A stretch of DNA of 64,000 bases, taken from an uncultured Clostridia bacterium (GTDB lineage: Bacteria > Bacillota > Clostridia > TANB77 > CAG-508). The notes under the pieces were generated by a model. That model worked only from the letters and a program-made list of their open reading frames with translations. It searched no databases and had not been told where the DNA came from. Each line of letters opens with the position of its first letter. Position 1 is the stretch's first letter. The position numbers and the translations under genes are program-made. The stretch spans positions 132,657 through 196,656 of the forward strand of contig CAKPAI010000002.1 of assembly GCA_934133005.1 (NCBI GenBank). The letters are read 5' to 3'. Shown one piece after another: positions 30,535 through 51,200 of the stretch.

Positions 30535-31191
30535 CTAGTCTTTCACTACATAGTCATTTATATCTGGCTCAGAAAATACAGATTCGTCTATATTTTCAAA
30601 ATCATATTCTTTAACAGTTACACTATCTTCCCATTTTTGACCTATTAAAAGTCCTGTGTCTTTATTTATATACATTGTATTTTTTCCATTGTTAAATAAT
30701 ATATCAAAAATAGATCCATAATTTACTGCATAACATTCTTCATTATTGTAAATTGTTTTCCAAATAGTTGATGTCATTCCTGTTATAATAGCTTGTAAAT
30801 TATTTGAAAAAGCAAATTGATTTTCAACTGATGGAGCAAGAATTACGTTTTCAGTATTTATTTTAACACTTTTTTCAGTTTCAGTATTTACATACATCCT
30901 TTTACTTTCACTATACCAAGAAAGTTTTACTTTTTTTCCGTCTTTGTCAGTCTTTTCAAGAAGTGTTACTTTCTTATTGCCTTTTTTATAACTATCTATT
31001 ACTAAATCATATTCATTCATTGTTGTTACAGATTTTACATGATAATTTTCCTTACTACAATAATCCGCTGCTTCCACTTGCAAAGCTGAAAGTATAACAA
31101 AATTTCTTCCTGTATGCAATACTAATAATACCAATATTACTAAAACTACAATTCCTACAATTTGGGGCCATTTTCTTTTTTTCTTCTCCAT
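30535..31191 (-). CDS. hypothetical membrane-anchored protein (last gene of F1-like ATPase locus)
   Basis: N-terminal TM (IVGIVVLVILVLLVL), otherwise no recognised motif. 23-nt gap from the upstream gene. Confidence 0.5.
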   Translation of the reverse strand: MEKKKRKWPQIVGIVVLVILVLLVLHTGRNFVILSALQVEAADYCSKENYHVKSVTTMNEYDLVIDSYKKGNKKVTLLEKTDKDGKKVKLSWYSESKRMYVNTETEKSVKINTENVILAPSVENQFAFSNNLQAIITGMTSTIWKTIYNNEECYAVNYGSIFDILFNNGKNTMYINKDTGLLIGQKWEDSVTVKEYDFENIDESVFSEPDINDYVVKD

Positions 31192-31214
31192 AATAATCCT
31201 CTTTTCTTTAGTTT

Positions 31215-32024
31215 TTAATATTTATATTCTTTTAAATCATTTATGCTTTTTATCAATAATTGCTCTCCTTTTGATGTTGAAAGTGAGTCAATACTCATAT
31301 TTATTGAATATTTATTTGATATTCCTGTTGCAAGTACATCAAATTTTAAAGATTCATCATCATTTATTGTTATATAATCATCTTTTTCATAATCATAAAT
31401 TTCGATGCTTGTTCTATAATTTACAATAGCATATGATAATGGTGAAACAACATATTGATTTGCACCTATAGTAATAGTAGTAGTTTCTAAGAAAAAGTAC
31501 ATATCATTTCCATCATATAAAAAACTTCCGTTTACTTCTTCTTGATTATTCTTATTAAACTTTTTAATTTTTGATGTATAATTTTCTCTTATTATATTAG
31601 TAAATTTATCTAACTTATATATATCTCCAGTTGGCATTACAAGTTCCACCTGTGCTGGAATTAAAGCCTTACCTAAAACATCAGTATAATACATAGGTGT
31701 TGAATCTAAATACACCGTTTTTCCACCCTCTAGTACTAATTTTATATCATCATTTATTTGCTGAACATCCATAGAACCAGAATATTCTTGCTTTATTCCT
31801 GCAAAATATTGATAATATGATCCTCCTGATAAGTTAATTTTAGTTTGACTTGATACTATTGCATTAAATATTTGATATATTATAAATACAAAAGCTATAA
31901 TCACTGCAACAAGTGCAATTCTAATTACTTTATCATTACTTCCAAATTTTTTAATTTTTCTTTTGCTCTGTGATTTCTTTATTCTGTTTGCCAACTTTAT
32001 TTGCACTTCCTTTCTCTTTCTCAA
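31215..32024 (-). CDS. hypothetical membrane-anchored protein (F1-like ATPase locus)
   Basis: Basic N-tail plus one TM. Apparent TTG start with a 74-nt out-of-frame overlap with the upstream gene; the start is uncertain. Confidence 0.45.
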   Translation of the reverse strand: MRKRKEVQIKLANRIKKSQSKRKIKKFGSNDKVIRIALVAVIIAFVFIIYQIFNAIVSSQTKINLSGGSYYQYFAGIKQEYSGSMDVQQINDDIKLVLEGGKTVYLDSTPMYYTDVLGKALIPAQVELVMPTGDIYKLDKFTNIIRENYTSKIKKFNKNNQEEVNGSFLYDGNDMYFFLETTTITIGANQYVVSPLSYAIVNYRTSIEIYDYEKDDYITINDDESLKFDVLATGISNKYSINMSIDSLSTSKGEQLLIKSINDLKEYKY

Positions 32025-32541
32025 ACTCTTTATTTACTCTATCTTCCGATATCAAATCTATATCTCTTAGGAATATGTATGCTATTAGCATTAACACAAA
32101 TACAACTAAACATGTCTTAATTGTTAAAATTACAATAGAGTACTCAATATCTGCTAAATAATTATCCATTACATATACAAAGTATATCATTACAATCTGC
32201 ATCGCTGTACAAATTACTTGGTATACAATTCTTTTTCTAGTTATTATTACGTTTATTGCCGTCAATATAACAAGCATTATAAAACATACCCACATAGAAA
32301 ATTCTTGTATTGTTATTATAGCATAACATGCCAGAAATGTCTTTAGTATGACTATAGAAATTTTTAAAATATCAATTTTTTTCATTCTCAAAAATAGTCC
32401 ATATATGAATATCTTTGATTTTTTATCTTGCCTAAAGTTTCTTATTGCTAGATAACTTATACCTCCAATAAGAAACATTAGTACTAAGAAAGATATGAGT
32501 AGCCATCTAGACTCTTGTATATAATATAATACTAGTTCCAT
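31951..32541 (-). CDS. hypothetical polytopic membrane protein (F1-like ATPase locus)
   Basis: 4-5 predicted TM helices. Follows the epsilon-like gene after a 25-nt gap. Confidence 0.5.
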   Translation of the reverse strand: MELVLYYIQESRWLLISFLVLMFLIGGISYLAIRNFRQDKKSKIFIYGLFLRMKKIDILKISIVILKTFLACYAIITIQEFSMWVCFIMLVILTAINVIITRKRIVYQVICTAMQIVMIYFVYVMDNYLADIEYSIVILTIKTCLVVFVLMLIAYIFLRDIDLISEDRVNKEFEKEKGSANKVGKQNKEITEQKKN

Positions 32542-32566
32542 ATCTTATGTTTTTAACCTTTCTTTT

Positions 32567-34190
<1,624 letters not shown>

Positions 34191-34226
34191 TTATTTTTCT
34201 TCCTCTCCTCTTTATCTTAAGAAAAC

Positions 34227-35012
34227 TTATGAATTCAAGTTTACCTTATTTATGTTATCTAGCTGTTTCTTTAAACTCTTCATTTGTCTTTCTTTACGTT
34301 CTTCTCTAGTCTTTTCTTCTTCAATTTCATCAATTTTTTTCAAAGATTCTTTTGTTATCATTTGTCTCATGATATTTTCAGAAGCATAACTATTTTCAAC
34401 AGCAACTTTTATTTCATAACCTAAATATAATGCAATTATATTTAATAATATACTGTTAATATTTCCTTCAACAGCAAAGTCATCTTGATAATCTTCTGCC
34501 TTTGCCTTTGTTTTATCTAGTGGTAATATTTTTTGCTTTACACGCTCAATTCTACTTACATTATAATAATGATTATAAACTAGGTTTATTGTTTTATATT
34601 TTTTATCTCTAATACTTTCAAACATTATTCTATTTATTTCATTATTATTTTCAAAATATTCATCTTTTGACATTGATAATAGAACATTTGAATAAGTTTT
34701 ATCCTTTATTACTTTTTTACCTATTATAATTTTATCATTTTCTGTATCTTTTTTTAGCATTTCTGTAATATTAGAATTGAAGCTTCCACAGAACCCTAAA
34801 TCATTTGCTATATAAATGTTCAGTTCTTTTCCTTGATCATTCATTTGTATCATTTTTTTATCTAATATTAAGTTACTGTTATTTAATATATTATCAATAA
34901 AATCTCTTACTGATTGTTCATATCCAGAATATTTTTCTGCTTTTTTCTTAGAAGAGTCAACTCTTAGTAGTGAATGAAAGTTCATAACTTTTACTACACT
35001 TTTTATTCTCAT
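34227..35012 (-). CDS. atpG: F1 ATPase gamma subunit homolog
   Basis: 261 aa. DLGFCGSFN (cf. DRGLCGGLN) and a C-terminal ASENIMRQM helix (cf. ASEQAARM). Confidence 0.7.
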   Translation of the reverse strand: MRIKSVVKVMNFHSLLRVDSSKKKAEKYSGYEQSVRDFIDNILNNSNLILDKKMIQMNDQGKELNIYIANDLGFCGSFNSNITEMLKKDTENDKIIIGKKVIKDKTYSNVLLSMSKDEYFENNNEINRIMFESIRDKKYKTINLVYNHYYNVSRIERVKQKILPLDKTKAKAEDYQDDFAVEGNINSILLNIIALYLGYEIKVAVENSYASENIMRQMITKESLKKIDEIEEEKTREERKERQMKSLKKQLDNINKVNLNS

Positions 35013-35030
35013 TTCCTTGTCTCCTCTCTT

Positions 35031-36365
35031 TTATTCTGCAAAATCTTCAAATCTTTCTATAATTTCTTCATTTGAAAGTGGATCGAATTTTTCTTGTCTT
35101 AATAACATTTCAATTTTCTTTCCTTCTTTTAATTTTTCTTTCAAATCTTCACTTAATTCATCAGTATTTGCAAGTTCATAAACATCTCTAGTTTCTAGAT
35201 AATTTAAAAGTTTCATTCTTACTGTTGCACCTAATTTTTTAATTTCTTTAGTTTGAACGGCACCACCAAGTCTTGATACTGAAATTCCATAGTCAATAGC
35301 TGGTTTTTGTCCTTTTAAGAATGATTTATTTGATAAAACAATTTGTCCATCTGTTATAGAAATTATATTTGTAGAAATATAGTCTGTTATATCTCCACCT
35401 TTAGTTTCAACTATTGGAAGTACTGTTATAGATCCACCATTTTTATGTTGACAGCCTTTTTCAAGAAGTCTTGAGTGTGTATAGAATATATCTGCTGGAT
35501 ATGCTTCTCTACCCGGAGTTTTGTTTGATGTTAAACTTATTTCCCTGTATATTTCAGCATGTCTTTTTAAATCATCTATTACAACTAACACATCTCTTCC
35601 TTTTTCCATGTATTCTTCCGCAATTGACATACCTACATAAGGAATTAAGCTTATTACTGGTGTTTTATCATCATTTGTTGCAACAACCATTATAGTATAG
35701 CTTAAAGCATTTCTTTTTAGTAATTCATTATAAATTGACTTTATTTCCTTTTTAGTTTTTCCTACTGCAACATATATACATATCATTTGTCCATTTCCAT
35801 CAGGTTTTACTTTTCCTTGGTTTACAATTGTATCTAGCGCAATTTGAGTTTTACCTGTTCTTTTATCTCCTAGAATTAATTGTCTTTGTCCCTTTCCTAT
35901 TGGGTATATTAAATCGATTCCAGCAATTCCTGTAAGAAGTGGTCTACATACTGCTGTTCTATCAATTATTGGAACATTTGGTTTTTCTATATCTATATAT
36001 TTATATTTTTCAAATGGTTTTCCAGATAGTTGATCTGTTCCAAATATATCTGTTATTCTTCCCATTGCATCTTCTGAGAATATTGCTCTAAATATCTCTC
36101 CTGTTGAATTAACAACATCTCCAATTTCAATTTTTGAACTTTCTTTTACTATAGCTATACTTACAGAATTTTCATATATGGCATTTACATATCCCATTCC
36201 CTTTTCCATAATTACAACTTTTTCAAAGTACATAACATTTTCTAGTCCTGCAACTTCTACTATATAGTCTTTTATCTTTATAACTTTTCCTGAATCAAAA
36301 ATATTGTTTTTTGATTTTATTTTTTCAACTTTTTCATTAACAAGATTCGTTATATGTGTTTCCAT
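35031..36365 (-). CDS. atpA: F1 ATPase alpha subunit homolog (C-terminally shortened)
   Basis: 444 aa. PIGKGQRQLILGDKRTGKTQIALDTIVNQ (Walker A), GREAYPADIFYTHSRLLEK, TNIISITDGQIVL and the arginine finger SVSRLGG. About 60 aa shorter than canonical alpha at the C-terminus. Confidence 0.85.
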   Translation of the reverse strand: METHITNLVNEKVEKIKSKNNIFDSGKVIKIKDYIVEVAGLENVMYFEKVVIMEKGMGYVNAIYENSVSIAIVKESSKIEIGDVVNSTGEIFRAIFSEDAMGRITDIFGTDQLSGKPFEKYKYIDIEKPNVPIIDRTAVCRPLLTGIAGIDLIYPIGKGQRQLILGDKRTGKTQIALDTIVNQGKVKPDGNGQMICIYVAVGKTKKEIKSIYNELLKRNALSYTIMVVATNDDKTPVISLIPYVGMSIAEEYMEKGRDVLVVIDDLKRHAEIYREISLTSNKTPGREAYPADIFYTHSRLLEKGCQHKNGGSITVLPIVETKGGDITDYISTNIISITDGQIVLSNKSFLKGQKPAIDYGISVSRLGGAVQTKEIKKLGATVRMKLLNYLETRDVYELANTDELSEDLKEKLKEGKKIEMLLRQEKFDPLSNEEIIERFEDFAE

Positions 36366-36382
36366 TTACTTTTATCCTTCCT

Positions 36383-37204
36383 TTATATACTATAATCATA
36401 GATTTTATCTCTATATTTAATAATTATTCCTTCTGACATATTATTATAAGGTTTTACAACAATATCATCATCTATTAAATCATATCTACTTTCTACATTA
36501 TTCGTGTAAATATACACTGTAGGTTCGATTTTTTCTAGTCTCTCATCTAAAGCTTCTATAAGTTTTCTTACATCAAATTTTTTCATTTGACTCATTTTTT
36601 CAAAATCAATTGTGCTTTTTTCCTTTGCAGTTAATACTTCGCTTAATACTTGTATTTGCTCATTAGGCTCTAATGTTAGTATATTATAAATAGCCTCTTC
36701 ATCAAATTTATCTCTGATTTTCTTTAATGCTTTGTATTCTTTGTTTTCGGATTCATTTCTATGCTCAGCAATAAAACTTTTTATAATCTTTTCGTTATTT
36801 ACAGTAAATACTCTTTTGACCTCTTTATAATTATTAAAAAATTGTGTCTCTCTGTAATCTGGAACATTTAAATTATATTTTATTTCTTCTGTTTGCTCTG
36901 CTTTAGCATCTTCTACTATGCTCTTTTTCTTCTTTTTACTGTTTTCTAATTCTGCAAATTCAGCTTCTTCTTCATCACTTTGTAAAATATTTTTATTAGC
37001 AGATTTTATTTCATCTATTTGTATTTTTATTTCATTTAGTTTTGATTGCTTTTCATCTAATATATAATCATAATCTTGCATCTTATTTACAAAATATTTT
37101 TTTGCATTATCATCCATTCTTTTAATAATGTTACTGAAAAGAATAAATACAAACACAAGCATTATTGCAATTAGTATCACTGCTACAATTACTAAACTTA
37201 ACAT
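36383..37204 (-). CDS. b/delta-fusion-like stalk protein: N-terminal TM + long coiled coil + OSCP/delta-like C-terminus
   Basis: 273 aa. TM at residues 1-25, then a Lys/Glu-rich helix. The C-terminal GIIIKYRDKIYDYSI resembles the delta C-terminus GGLVVRIGDKVIDGSV. It occupies the atpF-atpH position between the c-like gene and alpha. Confidence 0.55.
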   Translation of the reverse strand: MLSLVIVAVILIAIMLVFVFILFSNIIKRMDDNAKKYFVNKMQDYDYILDEKQSKLNEIKIQIDEIKSANKNILQSDEEEAEFAELENSKKKKKSIVEDAKAEQTEEIKYNLNVPDYRETQFFNNYKEVKRVFTVNNEKIIKSFIAEHRNESENKEYKALKKIRDKFDEEAIYNILTLEPNEQIQVLSEVLTAKEKSTIDFEKMSQMKKFDVRKLIEALDERLEKIEPTVYIYTNNVESRYDLIDDDIVVKPYNNMSEGIIIKYRDKIYDYSI

Positions 37205-37317
37205 ATTCTTTTCCTTTCACTTATGATATTTATATATCATATTTTATACATTAGTATTATTACATTTAGCCTATATTTGCTTAATACTAAATTAAGAAAA
37301 TATAGGCTCCTTGTTTT

Positions 37318-37575
<258 letters not shown>

Positions 37576-37618
37576 TTACCTCGGAGAAAACTTTTTTAAG
37601 CTTTCTCCTATCCTTTCT

Positions 37619-39151
37619 TTAATAATTTATTATTTTTGAACTTAAATATTTGTTTATCTCTTGTCCATTATATTTTAAATTTTGTAGTTCTATTTTTATA
37701 GCACCATTTGAAGTTTTATACTCATTTGGTATAGCAAAACTACCTGTATAACCGTTAACACCTGCTTGTTCTAGTTCACTGCTTGTAAGTGTTATAATGT
37801 TATCTGCAGTTTCTTGATTATTTACATACACTGCAATTTCGGCTCCAGAATCATACACAAATTCACTATCTAATTTTAATGAATAATATACTTTATCTGT
37901 TGATACTCTTGTAATTTTCAAACTTTCCACTGGAGATTTAGTTCTAGTTACCATAGTATCTTCAATCATTTCTTCTACAGATGCGTCTGCAAATATTGTT
38001 TTATATCCCATTTCAATATAATAGTTAGTATTTGGAGAAAGTCCTGTTACTCTATAAGATGTATTTGATTTATCAAGTGAAATATTGTATGGTGTTATAT
38101 TATCACCAGATATTCTTAGATATACAACATTATATTTACTTTCAGGGTCAGTTACTGAATAATTTACATCTATGTAAGTAACTCCTGAACTTAAACTATT
38201 TAATTTTATGCTTTTTGCAAGTGTTGCGTCATCTTTCTTGCCACTATTGCCATTATATATACTATCAAATCCTGCTGCGACATCTTTTATCCATTTATTT
38301 AAATCATCTACCCAAGTTGTATCCATTTTAGTTCCAGGAGTAATATTGCTATTATTTCCAACATTTCCTGTTGTTCCCGAACCACCATTTATAATAGTTG
38401 TAGATGAATTATTATTATTTGTAGTAGAATTAGATGCATAATTTCCACCTTGATTTGGAATTGTGTTTTGATTTTCTTCAGTATTTTTCTCTTCTTCTTT
38501 TTCTACTTTTACATACTCGTTTGTACTTCCAAGTATCCTTTTTAAATTGATTGATGCTTCTTCTTGTTTAAATGTAAGTTGTTCATTTGCAACATCAAAA
38601 TCAAAATCGCTTGTACTTATAACCATTTCATTTATAGTTTTAGCATCAATTTGGTTATTTAATAATTGAGCATTTCCTAATCTGTCCACTATTACAATTA
38701 AATAATTTTTAGTAGATAGTGAACCTGTGTTGTTTTCTATGTTTGGAGCTACTATCAAATATTTTCTATCTGCAATTTTATAAAATTTACAATCATTGGT
38801 TCCATTAATTGTATTGTAGTTGGTTAGTTTATTAACATTTCCTCCTTCGAAGACTTGGTAAAAGTCTCCGAAAAGAGTTAATGAATTTCTGTTTTTATCA
38901 AATGCTACTGAATAGCTTCCTAAATTGTATTCTTTGTCCGTTTGGCTTTCTTTTAAATAATATCCACCTGTCCATTTTTTAGACACTGTTCCTATATTTT
39001 CCAGCTCTATATAATTATAATCAGAGTCATATACACATATAGAACTTGATACTTCATACTCTGTTTTACCATTTTGCAATACTATAACTACTGCTCCTGC
39101 AAGAATTAGTAAAATTATTATTACTATAAACGTAAATATTGTAAAATTCAT
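37619..39151 (-). CDS. membrane-anchored surface protein with FN3-like domain, paralog of the N-terminal module of the giant proteins
   Basis: ORF 37619..39178 (TTG). The RBS-supported ATG at 39151 begins MNFTIFTFIVIIILLILAG (TM). KIADRKYLIVAPNIE matches KISATKYLILANNMK of the 1950-aa protein. Shared N/T/G-rich linker TNNNNSSTTIINGGSG. FN3-like LSPNTNYYIEMGYK. Confidence 0.65.
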   Translation of the reverse strand: MNFTIFTFIVIIILLILAGAVVIVLQNGKTEYEVSSSICVYDSDYNYIELENIGTVSKKWTGGYYLKESQTDKEYNLGSYSVAFDKNRNSLTLFGDFYQVFEGGNVNKLTNYNTINGTNDCKFYKIADRKYLIVAPNIENNTGSLSTKNYLIVIVDRLGNAQLLNNQIDAKTINEMVISTSDFDFDVANEQLTFKQEEASINLKRILGSTNEYVKVEKEEEKNTEENQNTIPNQGGNYASNSTTNNNNSSTTIINGGSGTTGNVGNNSNITPGTKMDTTWVDDLNKWIKDVAAGFDSIYNGNSGKKDDATLAKSIKLNSLSSGVTYIDVNYSVTDPESKYNVVYLRISGDNITPYNISLDKSNTSYRVTGLSPNTNYYIEMGYKTIFADASVEEMIEDTMVTRTKSPVESLKITRVSTDKVYYSLKLDSEFVYDSGAEIAVYVNNQETADNIITLTSSELEQAGVNGYTGSFAIPNEYKTSNGAIKIELQNLKYNGQEINKYLSSKIINY

Positions 39152-39207
39152 TTTATTTCCTGCTGCTAAGTTTCTCAAATGGTCTCACCTCCTATTTTCT
39201 ATATTCT

Positions 39208-42200
39208 CTAATTATTTTTGTTTATATATGCTGTATTATTTATTGTGCCTACTAATGTGTTTCCTACAAACAAGTTCATTTGAATTGTATACGTTCCGCT
39301 TGACTTGAATGTCTCTGGTAATATTACTTTATAATATGAAACTCCAGAATTCTCGCTATCTTCTTCTTGTCTCCACGTAGGTGTAAATGTACCACTTTGT
39401 GTTTGGCTATTCGTTAAATTATACATTGTGTATGTTATTTTATCAATTTTTGTAATATTGTAATAGCTATCATAGAATCTCATTTCACAAGAATTTTCAT
39501 TTTGTACTAATGCTGTACTTCCTATTGCAACATCTTGATCATTTTCAATCTTACTTATACTATATTTTTCTTCTTTATCTTCTGTATTTCCATCATTGTT
39601 CCTGTCATATTTTAATTTTATAACTGCTATATAGCTATAAGTTCTATAATCAATACTGCTTTGTTGTACATACACTGAGAAATTTGTTCCATAGTCATTT
39701 ATATTGAATTTTTTCTCAGTTATAGCACTTCCTCCAATTGGAGTTGAATATATTGGAACTTCATTTTCTTCTGTAAATTCTGGAGAACCTCCTTTATATC
39801 TATATACATGTAATTCATATTCTCCATATTCTTGTCCTTGAATCATTGCATCTGGATCTTGAACGGTAGTTGTTACTCTGATGTAATCAATTTCATTATT
39901 ATTTTGATTTACTTTTTGTCTTCTCATTGTCAAACCTATCTTTGGCTCCTGCAATGTATCTAAAGTAAATTCTGCTTCTTCTGTTTCAATTTCAACAAGT
40001 GCTCCATTATAAGTAACCATTGGTGTTATCTTTAATATATATTTCTTATTTATGCTGAATGTATTATAATCTGGACTTATTGATATTTTTTCATTTATAG
40101 CATTTATTAAGTTTTCTGTTTCATATTTTGCATTAGTTACAATAAGCTCTCCATTTTCATTTATCTCATATTTTGAATTTTCGCCTCTAACTACATTATT
40201 ATCAGTAAGTGGTACTAATGTTGTACCATCAGCTTCATAGAATGCATATTTTGTAAATTCATACATATTTGACCTGTTTTGAGTTATTTTATAATCTATG
40301 TCTATATACTTTTCTTTATATTTTACAGCATCATACTTAATTGATATTGAATTAATTCCTATAGTTGCTAATGTTTCAAATTGATAAACAGCTCCAACTT
40401 CTTTTGTATCCATATCATATAAATATACATCGCTTACACCATCATTGTATCTGAATCTTATATAGTAATATTCAGCAGGTGATAAATCATCTAATACTAT
40501 AGTATTTTCAAATTCATTTTCTTGTAATAATTTTGTTATTACTGTATCACTTTTCCAATTTGGTTTAGCATCTTTATCTTTTGTATGGTATATCTCTATC
40601 GTTATTCCACCTGGAATTGTCATACTATTTGGTTTTATAAGTGAAGCACTAATTTCTGCTTTCTTTATACTTGTTTCTATTTTATTCATTTTTATTCCAG
40701 CTCTTAAACTTTGAATTGAAATAGTTTTTTCTGTTGCAAATTCTGTTTTTGCAATTTCTTTTTGAGTTATTATCATATCATTTTGTTTTAAGCCAGATTC
40801 AGTATATTGCATACTTAAAGTTACACCAGCAGTTCCATTGTTTATTGCATCAATGTTTGATATTCCAAGTCTTGCTTCGCTATTCTCTGCTGAGAAAGAA
40901 TAGTTATACATATTTCCTCCAATTTTATCTACTACTTCAAAGTTTGCATCATTTAAAGCTACATATGCGCCATTTGCATTTGTATATGCTGAATATTCAA
41001 ATGCATTTGTAGGAGCATATCCAATTACTCCATCATCATAATATAGAATTACTTCTATATTTGATTGTTTTCCTATAAAACTATCAAAATTACTATTTGT
41101 AGCTGCAAGTTCTAGTAAATCAACATCAAAGTAATAGTTATCATCATCGTTCACTTTTAATAACTTACTTGTCATTGTTTCTCCATTTTGTGTAAATTTA
41201 ACTTGAGCTGCTGCAATTCTTGAAGCTTTATCTCCGCTGAGCTTTAACCTAATACTATTAGGACTTTTATCATTATCATAAGCTATGCTTTCAATACTCA
41301 CATCATTACAATTTACAATTCCTTCAAATTTTTGTGTAACCATTGTTACAGTTTGATATACTTTTCCATTTTTTGCTTTATTTACGTTTTTATTATAGCT
41401 TAATGTAAATGTAACATTTTTCTGTGGTATATATATGCTTAGATTATCTAATTTTCCATCAGTTTTTACTTGAATATCACTATTTTGTATTGAACCATTT
41501 ACAGCAAGTATTAAATGAGCATATTCTCTTGTATCATTTTCGTTATATTGTAGAGCCGCATCCACATCTTTGCAAGAATATTTGTATGTTACTGTCGTAT
41601 CATCAGATGTTATTGGATACATTACAAAACTTGGATCTTGTTTTTGTGGATATAATATTTCTGTCTTTAATGTTTGTGTTGTATATTTTGAACTACCATC
41701 ATCTTCAGTTATATTAAGTGGCCATATTATATCATTTCCATTATTATCAGTATATGTTACTGTATATGAGAAGATATATCCATCACCTCTATGCAATTTT
41801 CCTGTTTCATTATCTTTTTCGATTGTATCAATTGTACCATAATCCAATTCGAATATTGCTGATGGAGCTTTATCTTGTGTCACAAAATTTAGTGTTTGTT
41901 TTAATTGTACTCTATTTCCATTATCGTCTGTTACATATTTTCCACTCTCATCTTTTTCATATATTGGATTTCCTTCAGCATCCCATACATAATATGTTAC
42001 AGATTTAGCACTTAAAGAACCAGTATTTGCAAACTTAGTTGATACAAAGTATCCAACTGCTGTGTTGTCTAATAAATTACTATCTTTTTCTAGACCATAT
42101 CTATTGGCTTCAGCATTTGTAATTACAGTAGCTGTTGGTCTTGCAGTATCTTCTGTAATATCTGCAGTCGTTCCTTTTCCTTTCACTATTATATATGCTG

Positions 42201-45060
42201 CTGTATATGTTTCTTTTGTTGATTTATTAGTATATGTTGTATCTCCTGTATTTATATCATCATCGTCAGCAGATTTAACTGGAATTTTATTTGTATACTG
42301 TGTTCCATCAACAGTAGCTGTTACAACAACTTGATAGTTTGCTTCAGTATAACTACTTTCATATCCACCACCTATTAAAGATGGAGTTACAACTAAGCTA
42401 TTTTCAAAGAATAAGTCTTGCAAACTGGCTACTTCTGTTGGATATTTTGCATTATCCACAACTTGATCAAAATTATTATTTGTTATTGTTCTTGACCAGC
42501 TATTATATTCACCACTATTTATGTCTCCAGATCCCTCATATACCATTATGTCTACACTAGATAAACTTTCTTCTGAGGAAATTGTATCAGCATCAAAACT
42601 AAGGTCAACAGTAAATGCGTTTCCAGCAGGTGCATTTTCTGGTACAGATAAATTAGCTGTTATTGGACTATACTTATCTGTTGTAATTATGCTACTTCCA
42701 ATATAAGCATTCTTATATCCTCCTGAAGTACTTTCTTCATCTTGTAAATCTACAGTTCCATATGCTGAGAATGTATATGATGTTTGTGCTTTTAATCCGT
42801 CTTTCTTATTTCCTTCTTTACCAAGATCAACGTTAATTCTTATTACACTATTTCCATCAACATCTTCTGTCTTTCCATATAATTTTCCATCTCCATATGC
42901 ATCAAGATTTGTTATTTTTAAATATGTTGTATTTTCAACTACGTCACTATAATAGCTTATTGTTAATGGATTTTGGTCATCTACTACTATTGTATTTTGG
43001 TTATCGATTATGTCTAAGTATCCAATTATTTCTGTTGTTTCAAAGTCATTGTTTGTTGCTTTTGTAAATTTAACCGTTGGGAAAGTTTTTCCATTTAATG
43101 AGAAAGCTCCTGCAATTGTACTCTCTACATCAACATATTTCTCATTGTCATATGTTGTCGCAATTACTTTAAATCCATATGATTTTCCTCTTATAATCGA
43201 ATCATTTGATTGCTCATTTCCTACATCTATAACAATATTTCTATCTGTTGTTTGTTTTTGATAAACAGGATTTTTTACATCATATGTTGTCTCATATAAA
43301 CCATCATCATTTAATATAGTTTTAAATTCATATACATAATATTCATATGATTTAATCGCAGAATCTTTATCTGTTACTTCATCAATATATAATGTAAATG
43401 TTCCATCTCTTTTATTTACAGCATAATTTAGCTTATCAATGCTTGCTTTTTCTTTTAAAGTTTGGCAGTTATAATATATTGCCCAATTTTCACCTTCTTG
43501 AACTGCTCCATTGTAACTTATATTTTTTACTTTTACTATATAATTTGTATTTGCCTCAAGTCCAGTAAATTCAACTTCTTCAATTCCGCCACTGTTTTTC
43601 TTTGTTTGATTTTGATTTATAATTTCATTACCATTAGCATCTAATAAATATATTTCCGCACTATCAACATTTGAATCTTTAAATTCTAGATTGAATGTAA
43701 GTGAATTTGCAGTATAAACTTCCTTGCTTATTTCAACACCTATTGAAGATGTTACAAATGTTTTATATAAGAAATTTTTTGTATATACATTGTCATTTAA
43801 AGTATATGTTGCAGTTGCTACTATTGAATAGCTTGTATCAGGTAATAATGTTTGAACATCTATTGGTATACTAAATGTTCCATATGCCTCTTCATCCATG
43901 TATACAACTTTTCCAGTTGCATTGTTTGTAATTTTTATAGTAACATTATCATTTTTTGATAATAAGTCTTCATCATCAGTAATTTGAACTGTTGCTTTTA
44001 TTCCTACTGAAGATATATCCATATCCTCTAATTTAAACTTAGGTTCAGTCTTTGATACTGTTTCATCAACTTTTGTTTCATTATTTTGTATATATTGATA
44101 AATAATATTTACTATTTCAAGGTTTACTTTAGTTTCATCATTTTCTATATTTGTATCAGTTGTTGTTCCTGCATTTGAACCACCATTTGTTCCACCGTTT
44201 CCACCATTTATTATTGTTGTTCCTGAATTGTTGTTATTTGTAGTATTTGTAATTGTTGTGCTACCGCCATTTCCGCCTGTAGTATTATCTATTTCTGTAT
44301 TTTCTTCTGTATTAGTGTTAGTATTTTTATTTTCATTTAAATCAATTAATGTAACATTATCATTAGAATTTATTACCATATCTTCTAAACTCATTTTGTT
44401 TTCATCATTTACACTAACAATTTTTGTTCCTAAATTTAACTTAACACCACTGCTTAATTCTATAAAAGAGTCTGAAGAAATTGTTTGATAACTGAATTCT
44501 TGATTATAAATATTAACAACCTCGCTATCAGAATACTCTACTTCTAGATATCCTGTTACATCTTTTGTATTTCCATTATTAAGTGTTACTTTCATATTAT
44601 TTGCTAAAATCAAATACTTTGTAGCAGATATTTTCCATATTGCTTCTTCAAAATTAACATCTTCTTTTAAATTTTGTACAGTATATCTATTTGAGACTTT
44701 TTTTATCTCTTTATTTGAAGCTACATTATAGTATACAATTGGATCATCATTTATTTTTGACAAATCTAATAAAACACCATCTTGTAACGATATAATATTT
44801 CCACTTGTATAGTGAATAAAATTATCATTACCTAGTGTAACCTTTGTTCCCTCTGTATCATTAAAAACTATTTGTTTATCATAAGATGTTGTATATTTCT
44901 CTTTTTCATAGAAATAATACCTATCTGATGAACCGTTTAAAATATATCCAGATTCAGCAAATTCCATCCTCTTACTTTTTTGTACATTTATTACATTAAA
45001 TGTAAGTACTGTTCCTAATATTAGTCCTATCATTATAAAAAATACAATATACTTTTTCAT
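39208..45060 (-). CDS. giant secreted/anchored surface protein (1950 aa) with multiple FN3-like/Ig-like repeats
   Basis: AAGGAG RBS, N-terminal signal/anchor MKKYIVFFIMIGLILGTVL, N/T-rich linker, repeated L-P-x-T-x-Y-x-[IV] FN3-like strands (LLPDTSYSIVATATY, LEANTNYIVKVKN). No C-terminal TM. Confidence 0.8.
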   Translation of the reverse strand: MKKYIVFFIMIGLILGTVLTFNVINVQKSKRMEFAESGYILNGSSDRYYFYEKEKYTTSYDKQIVFNDTEGTKVTLGNDNFIHYTSGNIISLQDGVLLDLSKINDDPIVYYNVASNKEIKKVSNRYTVQNLKEDVNFEEAIWKISATKYLILANNMKVTLNNGNTKDVTGYLEVEYSDSEVVNIYNQEFSYQTISSDSFIELSSGVKLNLGTKIVSVNDENKMSLEDMVINSNDNVTLIDLNENKNTNTNTEENTEIDNTTGGNGGSTTITNTTNNNNSGTTIINGGNGGTNGGSNAGTTTDTNIENDETKVNLEIVNIIYQYIQNNETKVDETVSKTEPKFKLEDMDISSVGIKATVQITDDEDLLSKNDNVTIKITNNATGKVVYMDEEAYGTFSIPIDVQTLLPDTSYSIVATATYTLNDNVYTKNFLYKTFVTSSIGVEISKEVYTANSLTFNLEFKDSNVDSAEIYLLDANGNEIINQNQTKKNSGGIEEVEFTGLEANTNYIVKVKNISYNGAVQEGENWAIYYNCQTLKEKASIDKLNYAVNKRDGTFTLYIDEVTDKDSAIKSYEYYVYEFKTILNDDGLYETTYDVKNPVYQKQTTDRNIVIDVGNEQSNDSIIRGKSYGFKVIATTYDNEKYVDVESTIAGAFSLNGKTFPTVKFTKATNNDFETTEIIGYLDIIDNQNTIVVDDQNPLTISYYSDVVENTTYLKITNLDAYGDGKLYGKTEDVDGNSVIRINVDLGKEGNKKDGLKAQTSYTFSAYGTVDLQDEESTSGGYKNAYIGSSIITTDKYSPITANLSVPENAPAGNAFTVDLSFDADTISSEESLSSVDIMVYEGSGDINSGEYNSWSRTITNNNFDQVVDNAKYPTEVASLQDLFFENSLVVTPSLIGGGYESSYTEANYQVVVTATVDGTQYTNKIPVKSADDDDINTGDTTYTNKSTKETYTAAYIIVKGKGTTADITEDTARPTATVITNAEANRYGLEKDSNLLDNTAVGYFVSTKFANTGSLSAKSVTYYVWDAEGNPIYEKDESGKYVTDDNGNRVQLKQTLNFVTQDKAPSAIFELDYGTIDTIEKDNETGKLHRGDGYIFSYTVTYTDNNGNDIIWPLNITEDDGSSKYTTQTLKTEILYPQKQDPSFVMYPITSDDTTVTYKYSCKDVDAALQYNENDTREYAHLILAVNGSIQNSDIQVKTDGKLDNLSIYIPQKNVTFTLSYNKNVNKAKNGKVYQTVTMVTQKFEGIVNCNDVSIESIAYDNDKSPNSIRLKLSGDKASRIAAAQVKFTQNGETMTSKLLKVNDDDNYYFDVDLLELAATNSNFDSFIGKQSNIEVILYYDDGVIGYAPTNAFEYSAYTNANGAYVALNDANFEVVDKIGGNMYNYSFSAENSEARLGISNIDAINNGTAGVTLSMQYTESGLKQNDMIITQKEIAKTEFATEKTISIQSLRAGIKMNKIETSIKKAEISASLIKPNSMTIPGGITIEIYHTKDKDAKPNWKSDTVITKLLQENEFENTIVLDDLSPAEYYYIRFRYNDGVSDVYLYDMDTKEVGAVYQFETLATIGINSISIKYDAVKYKEKYIDIDYKITQNRSNMYEFTKYAFYEADGTTLVPLTDNNVVRGENSKYEINENGELIVTNAKYETENLINAINEKISISPDYNTFSINKKYILKITPMVTYNGALVEIETEEAEFTLDTLQEPKIGLTMRRQKVNQNNNEIDYIRVTTTVQDPDAMIQGQEYGEYELHVYRYKGGSPEFTEENEVPIYSTPIGGSAITEKKFNINDYGTNFSVYVQQSSIDYRTYSYIAVIKLKYDRNNDGNTEDKEEKYSISKIENDQDVAIGSTALVQNENSCEMRFYDSYYNITKIDKITYTMYNLTNSQTQSGTFTPTWRQEEDSENSGVSYYKVILPETFKSSGTYTIQMNLFVGNTLVGTINNTAYINKNN

Positions 45061-45298: not shown

Positions 45299-48200
45299 TT
45301 ATCTATTACTTTTTCTATACATTACAATCAAAGCTAAAATTATTACTAAAACTATAATTGAAATCAATATAGTTCCTATATTTTGCATTGTTTTCTTTCC
45401 AGTAGATATGTTATTGTAATAGTTTGTTAATTCTTGACTCTTATTTATCTTTGCATTTTCTGTAGTTATAGTTGATGTTGTTGTATCTAAAAGTTCATTT
45501 GCACTATATACTACATAGTTTTGTGAATTTGAATCATATGCAGTTACATAACCTGCACTTGCGTTATTATTGCTACTTTGATTTGAGTTCGAAGGTTTTT
45601 CTCCTGTTGTATTTGTCTCAGTCATAGTATTATTCGAATTGCCACTATTTCCTGTTTCACTATTTTCAGTATTTTGCTTTAATTCAATTTCACTTGTTGC
45701 ATCAGCAATAGATTTTTTCTCTAATTTTTGTACTAACTCTTGAGCCTCTTTATAATCTTTTTCATCAATTTTATATGATAGATTTTCTAAACTCAATCCA
45801 TTTAATAAGTAACTTACAAAGTTTGTACTTTCATTATTTACTCCATTATCATATATTTCTTCACCAGTTATATAATTAAATCCATATACATTTCCTGTCG
45901 CAGAATATATTAAAACTATTTCACTGTCATTATTTAAGTTATTAGTCATTTGTATAATCTTTTCATTTTTAAAGTTTACTGGATATTTAATATCAGTTAG
46001 AAGATTATATATTTTACCATCAGTACCAAGAGTTGATTCATACTGCTTATTATTGTATGAATCTATTACTACAGAAGTTCCTACATTAGAGAACTTTCCA
46101 TCAATTACATACATAGTACCTTTTTTGATAAATATTTGTCCATCTTTGAATACATTTGTTCCATCTTCTTCTGTTACTTTTGTACAATGATAGAATGTTT
46201 GAACTTTTTTACCTAAATATGTGCTTTCTGTTATTGGAGTAATATTATCTAATAATTTCATTCCAGATACATTTCTAATATTTTTCATAGAACTTAAATC
46301 ATAAACATTTCCATTTGAATCTAGTACTTCGCTCTCATATAAGTTTGTAAAAGTTCCTTTTATTGTTCTTTTATTTGAATTTAGACTTCCATCTGATAGA
46401 TAGAAATATTCATCATTAGATATTGCAAGCATATTTCTTATATCATCTGCTTCAAAATCTTTTGTATCCCAATAATTAGCATTTGTAATTCTTATAGTAA
46501 ATGGAGATTTAAAATCATATTCAAAAGTATATACTCTTTGATTTATTTTTTGCTTTTCACTTATAATTTCGCCATTTGAAGTTACAGAAAATGTTGCACT
46601 TGTATTTGCCTTGCTAAATTCAATATTTATTTTATCTGCTCCTACAGTATATACATAAACTTGTGGCAAGTCTTCTTCCAATTGATCATCCTCATAATAT
46701 GCTACTGGCATAATCTCATCATCTAAAAGCATTAAATTTGCTAACGTTGCTTCACTTGCTAGTTGTTCACTAAACAATCTTATTGTAGCTTCACTATAAG
46801 TTATTGTTCTTTCTGGTATTGCAAATTCTTTAATAGTTACTCCCATTTCACTCCAATAAGTTTGTGCTGAATAATTTGGTTTTAGTGTTGGAAAATATCC
46901 AGATTTATAATTGTATCTTCCTGTACCAAAGTTTAAGCCTTCATTTCCTACAGCAACTTGTCCTATAACAGTAGAACCAATTATATTTCCTTCTTCATCA
47001 TACTCATACTCGTATTCATCCTCATAGATTCTTACATTTTTAGTATAATTACTTACAACTTTTAGCTCATCACTAGTTATCATTTTATAGTTTTCATTTT
47101 CTTCTACAATTCCTGATACTTGTGTTTTTGTAGCTAATAATTGGTTTTGCAAATTGCTTCCATTATATATGTAAATATTATTCATATATTTTGCTTGAAA
47201 TAACCCATAGTCAGAATTTTTAATTGATGCAATTCCCATATCAGCATATTTGCTTGATGTAGATATAACATCTGTTGCAATTAAATTACACTCAATAATA
47301 TTATATTTTTCAACATCAGGATCATAATTTATTTCTTTATATATTTCACCAATTAAGCCTCCTGCTGAACTTTTAGCAGATATATTTATTGTCTCATCAC
47401 TGTTTGCAATATAGTTATATTTTATTGTAGCTTTATATTGTAAGTTATTTAATTTGCTATTATCAAAATATCCTACTATTCCACCGGCGCCTTCTCCTGT
47501 TGCTGTTACATCAGTATTTACAGCATAACAGTATTGGATATTTCCAACTTGGCTTCCTCCTGCGATTCCACCAACATAATTTGCTCCTTTTACATAGCTA
47601 TCTTCTATATATGAATGCCACAAATAGTAATTGCTAGATTTTATTGAATTTGCTGAAGTTCCAACATAACCTGTATAGTATCCAACAATTCCTCCAACAT
47701 AATTTCCTCTTCCTGTAACTGTAGTATTATTAGTTACAGCTCCACCATGTATTGTTCCTCTCTCATATCCTGCAATTCCTCCAACATAACCAGAACCAAT
47801 AATCGTTACATTTGATACATATGCTCCAGCAGTTGAATAATTTGAATTATTAGATGTTGATATTGAAGTATTAGTATACTCATTATATCCAACAGCTCCA
47901 CCTACATAATTTCCAGAAGCCGTTACTTGGCAGTTCTCAACTTTTAATTCTTTTATTCTTCCATTTGTCCATCCAACAGAACCAGATACATAGTTTCTAC
48001 CTATTATTTCTTGGTTTGTTCCTGTAGATAGTGAGTTATTTAAAGTAGCATTATTGTTATTTAGTCTTCCTACATTTCCTGCTACATAATCTAATCCTTT
48101 AATATAATTGTTTCTAGATACAGGGTTTGAAACTGATGACCAACCAGTATTTCCATAATTTCCACCTACATAAGAACCCGTTGCACTCTTTGTTTTGTAG

Positions 48201-51200
48201 TCACTTACTTTATTTAGATTATTTGTTGCAATTATTATGTTATTTTCTGAAGTTGCACTTATGCCACTCCATCCTCCTTGTTGACCATTGTTGCCTCCAA
48301 CATAATTTGCTCCAAGTATAATATTATTTGTTGAAACCATATTATTGGTTGAACTTGCACCATTTCCACAATTTGCACCTACATAATTTCCAGTTCCTAA
48401 AATTATACTATTGCTTACTTTTGAGTTATAGAAAGTTGATCCACTTCCACCATATTCACCAATCGCTCCTCCAATGATACTTCTTCCTTTTATTAAGTAA
48501 TCGGTTTCTTCATCGCTATCTTTTTTACCATTTTCAGAATATTGATATGCATAAACTCCATTGATTGTATTTTGTGTACTTCCGAATATTCCACCAGCAT
48601 AATCGCCCGATGCAGTTACCTGTAAATATGTTCCTTTTATGTTACTTGTTGATCCCAATGACGCTGTATATCCACATAATGAACCAACATAGCTTTCACC
48701 TGTAACATTCATTCTATTTAGTGTAATATTATTAAATCTACCAGAAACTGCTCTTGATACTACTCCGACGTAATTCTTTCCGCCTTCGATAGTTATGTTA
48801 TCAAAAGTACAATCCTTCATTTCTCCTCTTAGTATGCTAATGATTCCACTATAATTTCCAGTACATGTAATCTTAGAATCTTTAAAGTGAATATTTTCGC
48901 AATTTGTTTTTATTTCTTTTATAAGACCAGAACTATCTCCTACTGATATATTTACATTTTTAAATGAATATTCTGTACTTCCTTCTAGTCTACCAATTAC
49001 AACATTTGTTACAATATGATCAACTGTACTAAAATCAATATCTCCAGTTATTCTTACATTTTGACCTATGTAATTTTTTCCTGAATTTTCAAAAAAGTCA
49101 TTCCACTCATCAGCATTTGAAATACCTTTATATAATGTAACTTTTATTTTCGTTGATATTTCTTTTTGTACAAAGTTTGTTCCATCTCTTGTATAAATTA
49201 TATTTTCAATTTTATAACTTTCAAAAGCTTTATTTGGAGTTGCAACAAATTTTGCTATTGTAAGTCCTGTTCCTTCCTCCTTTGATGTAGTCCAGCTTCC
49301 ATCAACAACAGACATATCATTGTCTTCTATTGTTACACCTGTTAAACTTAAATCATTAGGATTTTCAAATTTCATTTCTACTGTAACATTTGTTTTGTCT
49401 TCTGATGGTGTAGAAGTAATACTATATAGTTTTAAATCATTATCAAGTGTAATTAGTTTTTGATTTGCAAGCAATCCACTCTTTGATGTATTCATTAATT
49501 GTGGGAAATATCTATTATTTAATAAATTCATTTCTTGACCATTTTGAACTATCGTTCTTGCAAAATTATCATCAAATTTTAACAAGTTTGCAAAAGTATT
49601 GTCTGTAAATATTTCATTATCTTTTAATAGTTTAGTTGCTCCATATAAATCTGTTTTCTTTTCGCCACTCATTAATTGGTCTGCATAAGCATAGTTATTA
49701 TATGAAGTAGTTCCGCCATTGTTTCCTAAAATTCTATTGAAGTTATATATACCTGTGTTTCCTGCTATATAAATATTTCCTAAGAATAAACAGTTTTGTA
49801 CTCCTGAAGCACCAGTATCACTATAACCTGCAATACCTCCAAAGTAAATATTTCCACTTGTAGTTTTTGTATTTAAGTTAATCAAACTATAACAATTCTT
49901 TACATAGCAAGAACCATATTTTCCAAATCCTAAAATTCCTCCTGCATTTGTAAATGTATTTATCCTTCCTGTAGTATAACAGTTTTGAATATAGAATACT
50001 GGTGAACCTGCTTTTACTCTTTCATCTGAGTCATGTCTTTTATAACCAACAATTCCTCCGATACCATCTACTTGAGTTACACTCGTTGCTTCAACATTAT
50101 AATTTTGTACATAACAGTTTTGTATATATGTAGTAACACCACCAAATGCATATAAGTTTCCAACAATTCCTCCTGCATCAATATACAATGAATTTGGAGA
50201 ATTAAATGTCAAATCAAATCCTTGAACAGAACAGTTTTGTACTTTTATACTGTCAGCTGGATTACTACTTCCACTACTAATTGAACCTACTATTCCTCCA
50301 TATTTTCCATTGTCTTTATTATATGACACATTCATTTCCATATTTGATATACTAACATTATCAATTAGTATATTATCAGTCATATCTGCTCTAGCAATCA
50401 TTCCTGCATATTGAGAATTTGTATTTATTGTAAAGTTATTTATATTAAGATTTTTTATTTCACCTTCTGCAAATCCTGCAAATAACGATTCTGTTCCACT
50501 TATGTTATTTATAGTGTGCACTTTTCCTTCATATTCGCCATCTAAGTAGCCTGTAAATGTTCCTGTTATATATGGGCTATATTCAGAATCAGCAAAATTT
50601 AAATCATTAACTAATCTATAGTTTTGTATTAATCCACTTACGCCATTTTCATCAGTTTGATCTATATTTGTCCAGTCTTTTTCGTTTGCTATCTTCTTTA
50701 CAAATCTTACATCAATATATCTTGTTCCCATTGCTTCATTTTCACCATATACTGATGTTTTTATGACACCATTTGCCTGCTTACTTTGAATCTTTGATAC
50801 ATTGTAAGTATCTAAGAATGAAGTTGGATTATTTAATAACATATATACTGTACTTACTCTCTTGCTATATGATTGGCTTAAAATTACTTCATCCAAATAA
50901 TCAACATCAATTACACTTATTGTTGTTCCTGCAGGGTTATAAACTCTAAATGAAACAAGTTTTGTATTTTCATCGGTCAAATCAACATTATTTAATGTAA
51001 TATATGAATTTATTTCATTTCTAACCTTATCTGTTATATCTAATGAACTTATATCATTATTTTCTATTACAGAACCTGAAAGTATATCAATTATTTCATT
51101 ACCTGTAATATCTATTTTTACATTGTCTTGTTTAGGCATACAATAATTTAGTTTTAATTGAGGATAATATCCATTTGAAACTAAATTTTCAACAGTAAAG

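Follow-up and report, generated by a model that had tools for sequence, protein, structure and literature searches.

Does the F-type ATPase operon at this locus still encode a working enzyme and, if it does, what might that enzyme be doing beside a set of very large surface proteins? The window, a stretch of 64,000 nucleotides from a contig of an uncultured Clostridia bacterium, was the subject of an earlier note that took its alpha and beta subunits to be parts of a functional rotary ATPase rather than of a decayed operon. Our analysis supports this view, as catalytic residues are, with one exception, invariant among related genomes and the rotor and stator parts appear to have been kept. The best reading of the locus is a complete, selectively maintained F-type rotary ATPase in which ion translocation has been given up.

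The ATPase genes belong to an 11-gene module (Table 1) encoding two giant proteins, the single-pass protein p519, a c subunit, a b-delta-like fusion (p273), alpha, gamma, beta, an epsilon N-domain, a 5-TM protein (m196) and p269, and the order c, b/delta, alpha, gamma, beta, epsilon is the canonical one. Synteny of the whole module holds across ~80 genomes at species level, in which alpha is as little as 56% identical. Its accessory proteins are all membrane-anchored and have tiny cytoplasmic parts. Pfam, NCBIfam and PDB-profile searches returned no match for p273, epsilon, m196 or p269 and at most a weak fn3 match for p519 and the giants; epsilon and p273 were identified only through structure prediction. 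No minus-strand terminator-like sites were found between 30 and 46 kb in the window, a weak indication that fits co-transcription, and a promoter scan yielded a number of sites not above that of shuffled controls. We found no earlier description of the module in open-access papers and preprints. It is doubtful that the neighboring p218 is a member, and this gene has no homologue in 80 loci, its ~700 bp being absent from the closest locus, L001. The window also encodes SecY, as well as a MurC-like ligase and SpoIIP, and because of the latter two the host organism appears to be walled and sporulating.

Table 1. Genes of the ATPase module and the adjoining p218, with positions in the window.
Feature	Position	Strand	Description
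3484-aa giant protein	45299..55753	-	TM helix at N- and C-terminus; N/T/S/Y-rich
1950-aa giant protein	39208..45060	-	N-terminal membrane anchor, large extracytoplasmic part
p519	37619..39178	-	Single-pass membrane protein, extracytoplasmic domain, weak fn3 match
F-type c subunit homologue	37318..37569	-	83 aa; PF00137 31.9 bits against a cutoff of 24
p273, putative b-delta-like fused peripheral stalk	36383..37204	-	From predicted structure; TM helix, linker, delta/OSCP-like domain
F1 alpha	35031..36365	-	444 aa; non-catalytic site and Arg finger intact, N-terminal helix kept, C-terminal domain shortened
F1 gamma, divergent	34227..35012	-	261 aa; PF00231 E 1.5e-28
F1 beta	32820..34190	-	456 aa; catalytic site complete
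Epsilon N-domain	32567..32830	-	87 aa; N-terminal beta-sandwich, C-terminal helical hairpin absent
m196	31951..32541	-	Five-helix membrane protein, directly after epsilon
p269	31215..32024	-	Basic cytoplasmic N-terminus, one TM helix, ~200-aa ectodomain
p218	30535..31191	-	Single-pass membrane protein, strain-specific

All seven motifs quoted in the earlier note are present in the alpha and beta ORFs. Alpha carries GDKRTGKT at residue 166, TNIISITDGQIVL at 332 and SVSRLGG at 362, while beta carries GGAGVGKT at 152 and DELSDED at 384, with two further quoted motifs at 241 and 292. Positions 35031-36365, to which the note had assigned both subunits, do contain the alpha ORF, but the beta ORF (32820-34190) lies outside them. 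Matches to PF00006 are far beyond chance for both proteins (alpha, E 6e-73; beta, E 4e-71), and the best PDB matches of alpha and of beta are to canonical F1Fo enzymes of the Bacillus PS3 / Caldalkalibacillus type (E 2e-123 to 1e-113 for beta). Alpha residues 5-433 align with residues 7-430 of the 501/502-aa alpha of Bacillus PS3 (E 8e-99). Since the alignment ends at PS3 residue 430, ~60 C-terminal residues are missing relative to canonical alpha, and Pfam matches positions 1-63 of the 126 in the alpha C-terminal domain and no more, so that the shortening of about 60 residues noticed earlier is borne out. Scored against the F1Fo equivalog models of NCBIfam, beta passes with 481 bits, just over the atpD cutoff of 463, whereas alpha (419 bits against 484 for atpA, where PS3 alpha reaches 787), gamma (62 against 194 for TIGR01146) and c (25.5 against 44) all fall short. 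One source labels alpha as "F-type H+-transporting ATPase subunit alpha."

The conservation of these proteins is what would be expected of genes in use. Among 73-79 species-level sequences, beta K158, T159, E184, R185, D246 and Arg250 and alpha K172 and R365 are invariant, a set that covers the Walker A Lys and Thr, the catalytic Glu184 and Arg185 of beta, the Walker B Asp and the Arg finger of alpha. The sole exception among the catalytic residues checked is beta Tyr301, which is replaced by Phe in 2 of 73 sequences. A dN/dS comparison with orthologs had been proposed in the note as a check; run against six orthologous loci, it gives 0.07-0.10 for alpha and 0.05-0.10 for beta, which supports function, along with 0.075-0.145 for gamma and 0.03-0.095 for c, dS being near saturation in every comparison but that with L001. 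Frameshifts or stops in other strains, which had been named as evidence that would count against function, do occur, if marginally. The alpha ORF is intact in 78 of 80 MAG loci and split in two; beta is intact in 72 and split in one, the remaining shortfalls being contig ends or count artefacts; and gamma is split in 2 of the 80. The shortened subunit lengths are kept family-wide.

The membrane sector is where the locus departs most visibly from an ATP synthase, and the earlier note had described this Fo as degenerate. The description fits insofar as there is no a subunit, with PF00119 matched neither in the cluster nor in the other window ORFs scanned against Pfam, and there are no separate b and delta genes in the cluster. 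It does not fit the c subunit and the b-delta-like fusion, which are both present and conserved. The c protein is among the best conserved genes of the cluster and keeps the GxGxGxG motif of helix 1 and the GRNPE loop, yet the membrane carboxylate is absent, its position being occupied by a hydrophobic residue in the alignment. In 76 of 77 sequences, neither the helix-1 nor the helix-2 core contains a D or E; the exception is an Asp in the helix-2 core (1/77, against 0/77 for Asp in the helix-1 core). Besides this D/E count, HMMER alignments with PDB chains independently back the absence seen in the alignment. The best PDB match of c is 4bem, the c1/c2 ring of A. woodii (E 2e-10). Because c is highly conserved yet lacks the ion-binding carboxylate, Fo, as judged from its sequences, is remodelled rather than decayed.

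The remaining parts of the enzyme were recognized from structural models. In the AF2 model of p273 (mean pLDDT 73), an N-terminal TM helix continues as a long helix and is followed by a disordered linker and a C-terminal domain with a pLDDT of 85-90. Its best 34 Foldseek matches in the PDB are all to delta/OSCP or to the b-delta fusion of mycobacteria, at E-values of 2e-3 to 0.6, and this mid-confidence model, with marginal leading E-values (2e-3 to 5e-2), suggests that p273 may be a delta-like stalk. Its family comprises 425 clusters at 50% identity. For epsilon (model pLDDT 89), the best 50 Foldseek matches are all to F-ATPase epsilon, the mitochondrial ones being its homologue, with TM scores of 0.59-0.80 (0.69-0.79 for the best 20) and an rmsd of ~2 Å. 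An hhalign comparison of the epsilon family with a PS3 epsilon sequence is weak (E 0.027), with the register as expected. In one lineage, epsilon is fused with a response-regulator receiver domain.

The five-helix protein m196 is a candidate for the membrane stator or a coupling piece. It is invariably encoded next after epsilon, a position conserved across ~70 loci, and it shows no conserved intramembrane charge, including no conserved Arg. Neither PF00119 (0 of 30 members) nor the PDB or hhalign, the latter with an E. coli a-subunit query, gave a signal, and by these searches m196 is not recognizably an a subunit. These observations bear on the possibility that the enzyme still translocates ions, as an ATPase or a synthase, by a path through m196, through polar c-ring residues or with an a subunit encoded elsewhere in the genome. 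The canonical operon order would agree with this, as would the atpD equivalog score of beta, the constant presence of a 5-TM protein and the H+-transporting label given to alpha. Nonetheless, we consider continued ion transport unlikely, given a c carboxylate that is gone in 76 of 77 sequences and has not moved to helix 1, an m196 with neither conserved intramembrane charge nor a-subunit signal, and alpha, gamma and c scores under every F1Fo equivalog cutoff.

One feature of the locus that is absent from the earlier note is the conserved linkage of the ATPase to giant surface proteins. A homologue of either giant adjoins the ATPase in 57 of 67 informative loci, defined as those in which a giant homologue was found or at least 8 kb of flank was available on each side. 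The other 10 loci all come from one subclade and lack a giant gene in the surrounding 8-10 kb, so the link is not obligatory at the level of the locus. The 3484-aa giant has one weak fn3 match and falls outside any known family; in most related loci, its homologues flank the ATPase genes on the upstream or the downstream side, and it evolves fast, with a dN/dS of 0.31-0.54. In the 1950-aa giant, the N-terminal ~225 residues are the best conserved. The smaller membrane proteins also keep their places: in related loci, immediately downstream of p519 comes either the c gene or p269 and then c, and p269 is conserved in the cluster either after m196 or before c, with an analogue of the same architecture in CAG:302-like loci. 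The giants, p519, p269 and p218 show neither significant paralogy with one another nor internal repeats.

The adjoining genes for giant membrane-anchored proteins might suggest that the F1 hexamer is a secretion or assembly ATPase for these proteins, similar to FliI/FliJ, with the c ring and m196 forming a platform instead of a rotor. F1 and the type III export ATPases are homologous, and alpha and beta both match FliI/SctN models. We find this improbable, however, because the hetero-hexamer keeps gamma, epsilon, the c ring and a putative peripheral stalk, the full rotary set, while the giants carry ordinary N-terminal signal-anchor helices and the SecY encoded in the window is available for their export. 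Alternatively, the complex could be an anchored ATP hydrolase whose c ring does not rotate productively, serving regulation or ATP homeostasis, with the giants unrelated to it. The 10 loci without adjacent giant genes would be expected under such a scheme, and the fusion of epsilon to a receiver domain suggests signal control in that lineage. Against this, c is conserved to an extreme degree, its gamma- and epsilon-contacting loop included, and a putative stator has been retained, neither of which is easy to explain in a passive anchor, and the synteny with the giants, p519 and p269 is kept down to 56% alpha identity; we accordingly give this scheme a low probability. A decaying remnant of an ATP synthase operon in a genome under reduction, which the lost a and separate delta genes, the shortened alpha and epsilon and the split alpha, beta or gamma ORFs of a few MAGs might have suggested, is effectively refuted by the conservation data (alpha and beta dN/dS of 0.05-0.10, invariant catalytic residues, mostly intact ORFs and shortened lengths that are family-wide).

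We lean towards a rotary motor that is driven by ATP hydrolysis, transports no ions and drives a surface apparatus, a reading that we regard as moderately probable on the strength of the sequences. The rotor parts are present in the form of gamma, the epsilon N-domain and a c subunit with its polar RNP loop. A stator is suggested by the fused b-delta-like protein and by the retained N-terminal helix of alpha, which in canonical enzymes binds delta. In canonical bacterial enzymes, the C-terminal helices of epsilon inhibit hydrolysis, and an enzyme working in the hydrolysis direction only, as we propose here, would fit the loss of these inhibitory helices. With ATP hydrolysis, gamma, epsilon and the c ring would rotate relative to a stator that the b-delta-like protein and m196 together form. 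More speculatively, the resulting torque or cyclic displacement may be passed via the membrane to the TM anchors of p269, p519 and the giants, and these anchors might in turn make the surface apparatus undergo conformational or mechanical cycling that serves adhesion, movement or the interaction between cells, much as has been proposed for the mycoplasma F1-like X0 ATPases.

A broader reading, which we offer tentatively, is that the module represents an independently evolved and widespread rotary motor in which an ion-free c ring drives a giant-protein surface machine in walled bacteria, for motility, adhesion or contact between cells, and that it is found among uncultured gut Bacillota, the RF39- and TANB77-like clades included, in hundreds of clusters at 50% identity. 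If true, F1Fo would have been converted into a force generator a second time, outside the mycoplasmas, and, since the c ring and stalk are kept, the module would illustrate an intermediate between ATP synthase and the F1-like X0 motor. F1-like ATPases turned force generators have been described as mycoplasma-specific (PMC3369863, PMC11864180), and the idea would be widened by a separate version from uncultured Clostridia and Bacilli of the gut in which rotor and stator are still recognizable. The c-subunit carboxylate has been called universally conserved (PMC6063947), and together with the a-subunit arginine it is treated as universal in F-type rotors. A large family under strong purifying selection without either of them would serve as a natural experiment on the role of an ion-free c ring. 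The hosts are abundant, uncultured human gut bacteria, and metabolic reconstructions that count this module as an ATP synthase would misjudge the energy metabolism of genome-reduced gut lineages. The giants diverge fast between close strains and may mediate host or microbe interactions.

How does the module compare with rotary ATPases already known? With the canonical F1Fo of Bacillus PS3 and Caldalkalibacillus it shares the gene order atpE-(F/H)-A-G-D-C, the epsilon N-domain and probably a delta-like fold. It differs in having no a subunit, a c subunit without the carboxylate, b and delta that are apparently fused and shortened, shortened alpha and epsilon, and extra conserved membrane and surface proteins. 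In the A. woodii c ring (4bem), the c1 hairpin has a Gln at the carboxylate position. There, the site is missing from a single hairpin, and the remainder of the ring binds Na+ and works against the a subunit, whereas in the module every c would be without a site. The N-ATPases (atpDCQRBEFAG) are a second divergent F-type lineage and, like the module, are thought to be hydrolysis-directed, but they keep an a subunit, an ion-binding c and AtpQ/AtpR, while the module has no a subunit. None of the alt_F1F0 NCBIfam cutoffs is reached by alpha (363/750), beta (409/752), gamma (38/282) or c (21/131).

[quoted passage not shown] Hydrolysis by the mycoplasma F1-like X0 complexes has been proposed to pass across the membrane to surface effectors (PMC3369863, PMC11864180, PMC12994834), gliding being the proposed output of the type 2 ATPase and MIB-MIP function depending on the type 3 (PMC11864180, PMC12994834). 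The mycoplasma complexes have no c and no b homologue, and the type 3 alpha lacks the N-terminal helix; in the module, by contrast, c, the N-terminal helix of alpha and a putative b-delta-like stalk are kept, and the genes stand in the canonical order. Its accessory proteins differ as well, as the seven genes of the type 2/3 cluster include those for a protein with 12 TM helices, a small protein of the cytoplasm and a large one with two TM helices at its C-terminus (PMC12994834), in place of which the module has 5-TM and single-pass proteins. A "leg" mechanism in the mycoplasma style is also harder to picture here because the organism appears to be walled. Against the NCBIfam models MMOB1660/1670 and MSC_0619/0618, alpha and beta all score below cutoff (384/600, 394/850, 308/520 and 401/570), no better than the canonical subunits of Bacillus or Caldalkalibacillus do. 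A shared origin with mycoplasma types 2 and 3 is thus unsupported, and these scores point to a module derived independently of them, whose resemblance to the mycoplasma F1-like X0 complexes is one of function and not of membership.

The F-type ATPase encoded in the window is very probably functional, as its catalytic sequences and their conservation suggest. The earlier note had claimed that alpha and beta keep their catalytic signatures, indicating a functional rotary ATPase rather than a decayed operon, and each motif it named was recovered where it was expected: GDKRTGKT (residue 166), TNIISITDGQIVL (332), and SVSRLGG (362) in alpha, and GGAGVGKT (152), an 11-letter motif (241), a 15-letter motif (292), and DELSDED (384) in beta. 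Both subunits match the alpha/beta nucleotide-binding domain in Pfam (E ~1e-72), and their closest solved relatives are the F1 complexes of Bacillus PS3 and Caldalkalibacillus (alpha E 8e-99, beta E 2e-123 to 1e-113). Residues 5-433 of alpha align with 7-430 of 501/502 in PS3, so alpha keeps its N-terminal helix and is missing about 60 C-terminal residues, a shortening also proposed in that note. There are no in-frame TGA codons, and the genetic code is therefore standard. Across 73-79 sequences, K172, T173, D264, and the arginine finger R365 of alpha and K158, T159, E184, R185, E188, D246, and R250 of beta are invariant, with beta Tyr301 kept in 71 of 73. Alpha K203 occupies a position that is Gln in canonical alpha (AIGQK) and the catalytic Glu in beta; it is Lys (AVGKT) in 79/79 family members.

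Genes of the ATPase locus in transcription order, all on the minus strand
Feature	Position	Strand	Remarks
Giant, 3484 aa	45299-55753	-	TM helix at each end
Giant, 1950 aa	39208-45060	-	N-terminal anchor
p519	37619-39178	-	Single-pass membrane protein
c-subunit homologue, 83 aa	37318-37569	-	PF00137, 31.9 bits
p273	36383-37204	-	Between c gene and alpha
Alpha, 444 aa	35031-36365	-	ORF and motifs
Gamma	34227-35012	-	PF00231, E 1.5e-28
Beta, 456 aa	32820-34190	-	ORF and motifs
87-aa protein (epsilon-like)	32567-32830	-	Predicted structure match
m196	31951-32541	-	5-TM protein
p269	31215-32024	-	Single-pass membrane protein
p218	30535-31191	-	Single-pass membrane protein; followed by pgi, thrS

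A database search recovered alpha proteins 440-449 aa long from gut metagenomes by the hundreds, at 70-100% identity, and when one genome per species was scanned, 80 related loci turned up in MAGs of uncultured gut Clostridia, Bacilli, and 'Tenericutes', among them Clostridium sp. CAG:914, CAG:302, Ca. Merdicola, and Ca. Coprovivens. Alpha identity across these loci falls from 95% to 56%, and the entire module is syntenic apart from one rearranged subclade with its own conserved order (p269, c, p273, alpha, beta, epsilon, m196, gamma). This second order, in which gamma has shifted behind the 5-TM gene and p269 in front of c, occurs in L048-L051, L054-L056, L058-L070, L072-L076, and L078-L080.

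Selection was estimated as dN/dS (Nei-Gojobori) between the window and six of these loci, giving 0.07-0.10 for alpha, 0.05-0.10 for beta, 0.075-0.145 for gamma, 0.03-0.095 for c, and 0.08-0.67 for the accessory and giant proteins, with dS near saturation except against L001, the closest relative. Against L001, where dS is unsaturated, dN/dS comes to 0.068 (alpha), 0.052 (beta), 0.075 (gamma), and 0.030 (c). Split reading frames are rare, affecting alpha in two loci (L020, L053), beta in one (L020), and gamma in two (L018, L019), and may be assembly errors or real pseudogenes; in L020 the affected stretch is 9986-13570. Low dN/dS, the check proposed in the earlier note, and the scarcity of splits, which the note had named as a ground for refutation, both favor a functional complex and support the reading of the module as functional, not decayed.

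Some loci carry fusions or extensions. An epsilon-like protein in L077 (13718-14413) carries a fused response-regulator receiver domain (PF00072, E 8e-20), alpha in several Bacilli MAGs is lengthened at the C-terminus by 170-650 aa of unannotated sequence, and beta is extended by about 230 aa in L017 (coordinates of fusions and extensions: L030 9902-13174, L028 8814-11486, L024 9980-11821, L017 12106-14181). These lineage-specific fusions hint at regulation or at additional attachments where the alpha C-terminus is truncated.

Other rotor and stator parts emerged from structure prediction. The 87-aa protein has no annotation at the sequence level; its AlphaFold model (pLDDT 89) has F-ATPase epsilon for all of its top 50 Foldseek matches (TM 0.59-0.80, rmsd ~2 Å), and it is predicted to be the epsilon N-terminal beta-sandwich alone. 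Epsilon C-terminal helices inhibit hydrolysis in canonical bacterial enzymes, and they are missing family-wide here, since the homologues are only 82-98 aa long. In the p273 model, a TM helix extends as a long helix (residues 2-69) and is followed by a disordered linker and a well-predicted C-terminal domain of helices and beta structure. The top 34 Foldseek matches of this model are all delta/OSCP or mycobacterial b-delta fusions, and because they are wholly consistent despite modest leading E-values (2e-3 to 5e-2), we read p273 as a putative compact b-delta fusion, the delta-like assignment being of modest strength. Used as a marker, p273 defines a family of 425 clusters (50% identity) in a set of 1.84 billion representatives. 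With epsilon, p273, c, gamma, and the alpha N-terminal helix retained, the complex would hold all parts for rotation of gamma, epsilon, and the c-ring against a stator, and none recognizable for ion transport.

The membrane sector is remodeled, not decayed. The c homologue is among the most conserved module genes and retains the helix-1 glycine packing motif and a GRNPE loop; in canonical c this loop reads RQP and is where gamma and epsilon make contact. Aligned to reference c sequences, it has a hydrophobic residue at the position of PS3 Glu56 and E. coli Asp61, and the same carboxylate loss is seen when HMMER aligns it to the c rings of A. woodii and chloroplasts. Asp occurs in the helix-2 core in 1 of 77 sequences, and an acidic residue in the helix-1 core in 0 of 77. 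The 5-TM protein m196, which directly follows epsilon in about 70 loci, evolves fast, has no conserved intramembrane charge, and bears no resemblance to a subunits in Pfam (30 members), PDB profile, or hhalign searches. Neither an a subunit nor a separate delta gene was found at the locus or among the other window ORFs scanned against Pfam, and the complex probably does not translocate ions. Against the F1Fo equivalog cutoffs of NCBIfam, alpha (419 vs 484), gamma (62 vs 194), and c score below, and beta alone passes (481 vs 463). The proteins also score far below the NCBIfam cutoffs of the N-ATPase family.

A giant homologue adjoins the ATPase in 57 of 67 loci, counting those that have such a homologue or that are flanked by 8 kb or more on each side. 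None lies within 8-10 kb in 10 loci of one CAG:302-like subclade, where a p269-like single-pass protein is still found upstream of the c gene; these loci (L054, L060-L063, L066, L067, L072, L074, and L075, Clostridium sp. CAG:302 included) possess the ATPase core. The accessory proteins are all membrane-anchored with minimal cytoplasmic parts, so any coupling to the motor must occur within the membrane, and neither they nor the giants match any known family. The complex is about as likely as not to drive the neighboring surface proteins.

Module DNA (31207-46414) is only 76% identical to L001 (8-15153), compared with 93% for pgi and 97% for thrS in the flank (26684-30495), and synonymous divergence is 0.39 for alpha and 0.74 for beta versus 0.05 for thrS. 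Like many surface-antigen loci, the module appears to be an island of divergence or recombination. At its end, p218 is a strain-specific insertion, having a homologue in 0/80 related loci and lying in about 700 bp missing from L001. Elsewhere in the window, SecY, Mur ligase, SpoIIP, M23 peptidase, and RelA indicate that the host is probably one of the Bacillota that has a cell wall and sporulates; minus-strand ORFs of 774 aa (19927-22251) and 177 aa (23422-23955) have no Pfam match. GC content is 25-33%. Across 1-64000, GC skew is uniformly and strongly negative and almost all genes are on the minus strand, placing the window inside a single replichore whose genes are co-oriented; neither an origin nor a terminus signal was seen in that span.

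The fuller picture would be a conserved, ion-blind F-type motor module, apparently undescribed. Its nearest concept is the mycoplasma F1-like X0 ATPases, described as mycoplasma-specific (PMC3369863, PMC11864180); the type 2 enzyme is the proposed motor of M. mobile gliding, and the MIB-MIP antibody-cleavage system requires type 3 (PMC11864180, PMC12994834). Like both types, the window module has an intact F1, no recognizable ion path, and surface proteins linked to it, and it occurs in an organism that is genome-reduced and host-associated. Unlike X0, the window module combines a c subunit and a putative b-delta fusion with a 5-TM protein and single-pass proteins, whereas X0 clusters encode a 12-TM protein, a small one located in the cytoplasm, and a third with two TM helices at its C-terminus. 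Membership in the X0 families was ruled out by this gene content, by scores under the family thresholds (far below the NCBIfam cutoffs of the mycoplasma gliding and MSC_0618/0619 families), and by mycoplasma-model scores no better than those of canonical PS3/Caldalkalibacillus subunits (alpha 384 vs 418 and 308 vs 308; beta 394 vs 525 and 401 vs 423). Since these scores do not exceed the canonical ones, an independent derivation from the canonical operon, whose gene order the window module still keeps, is the favored reading.
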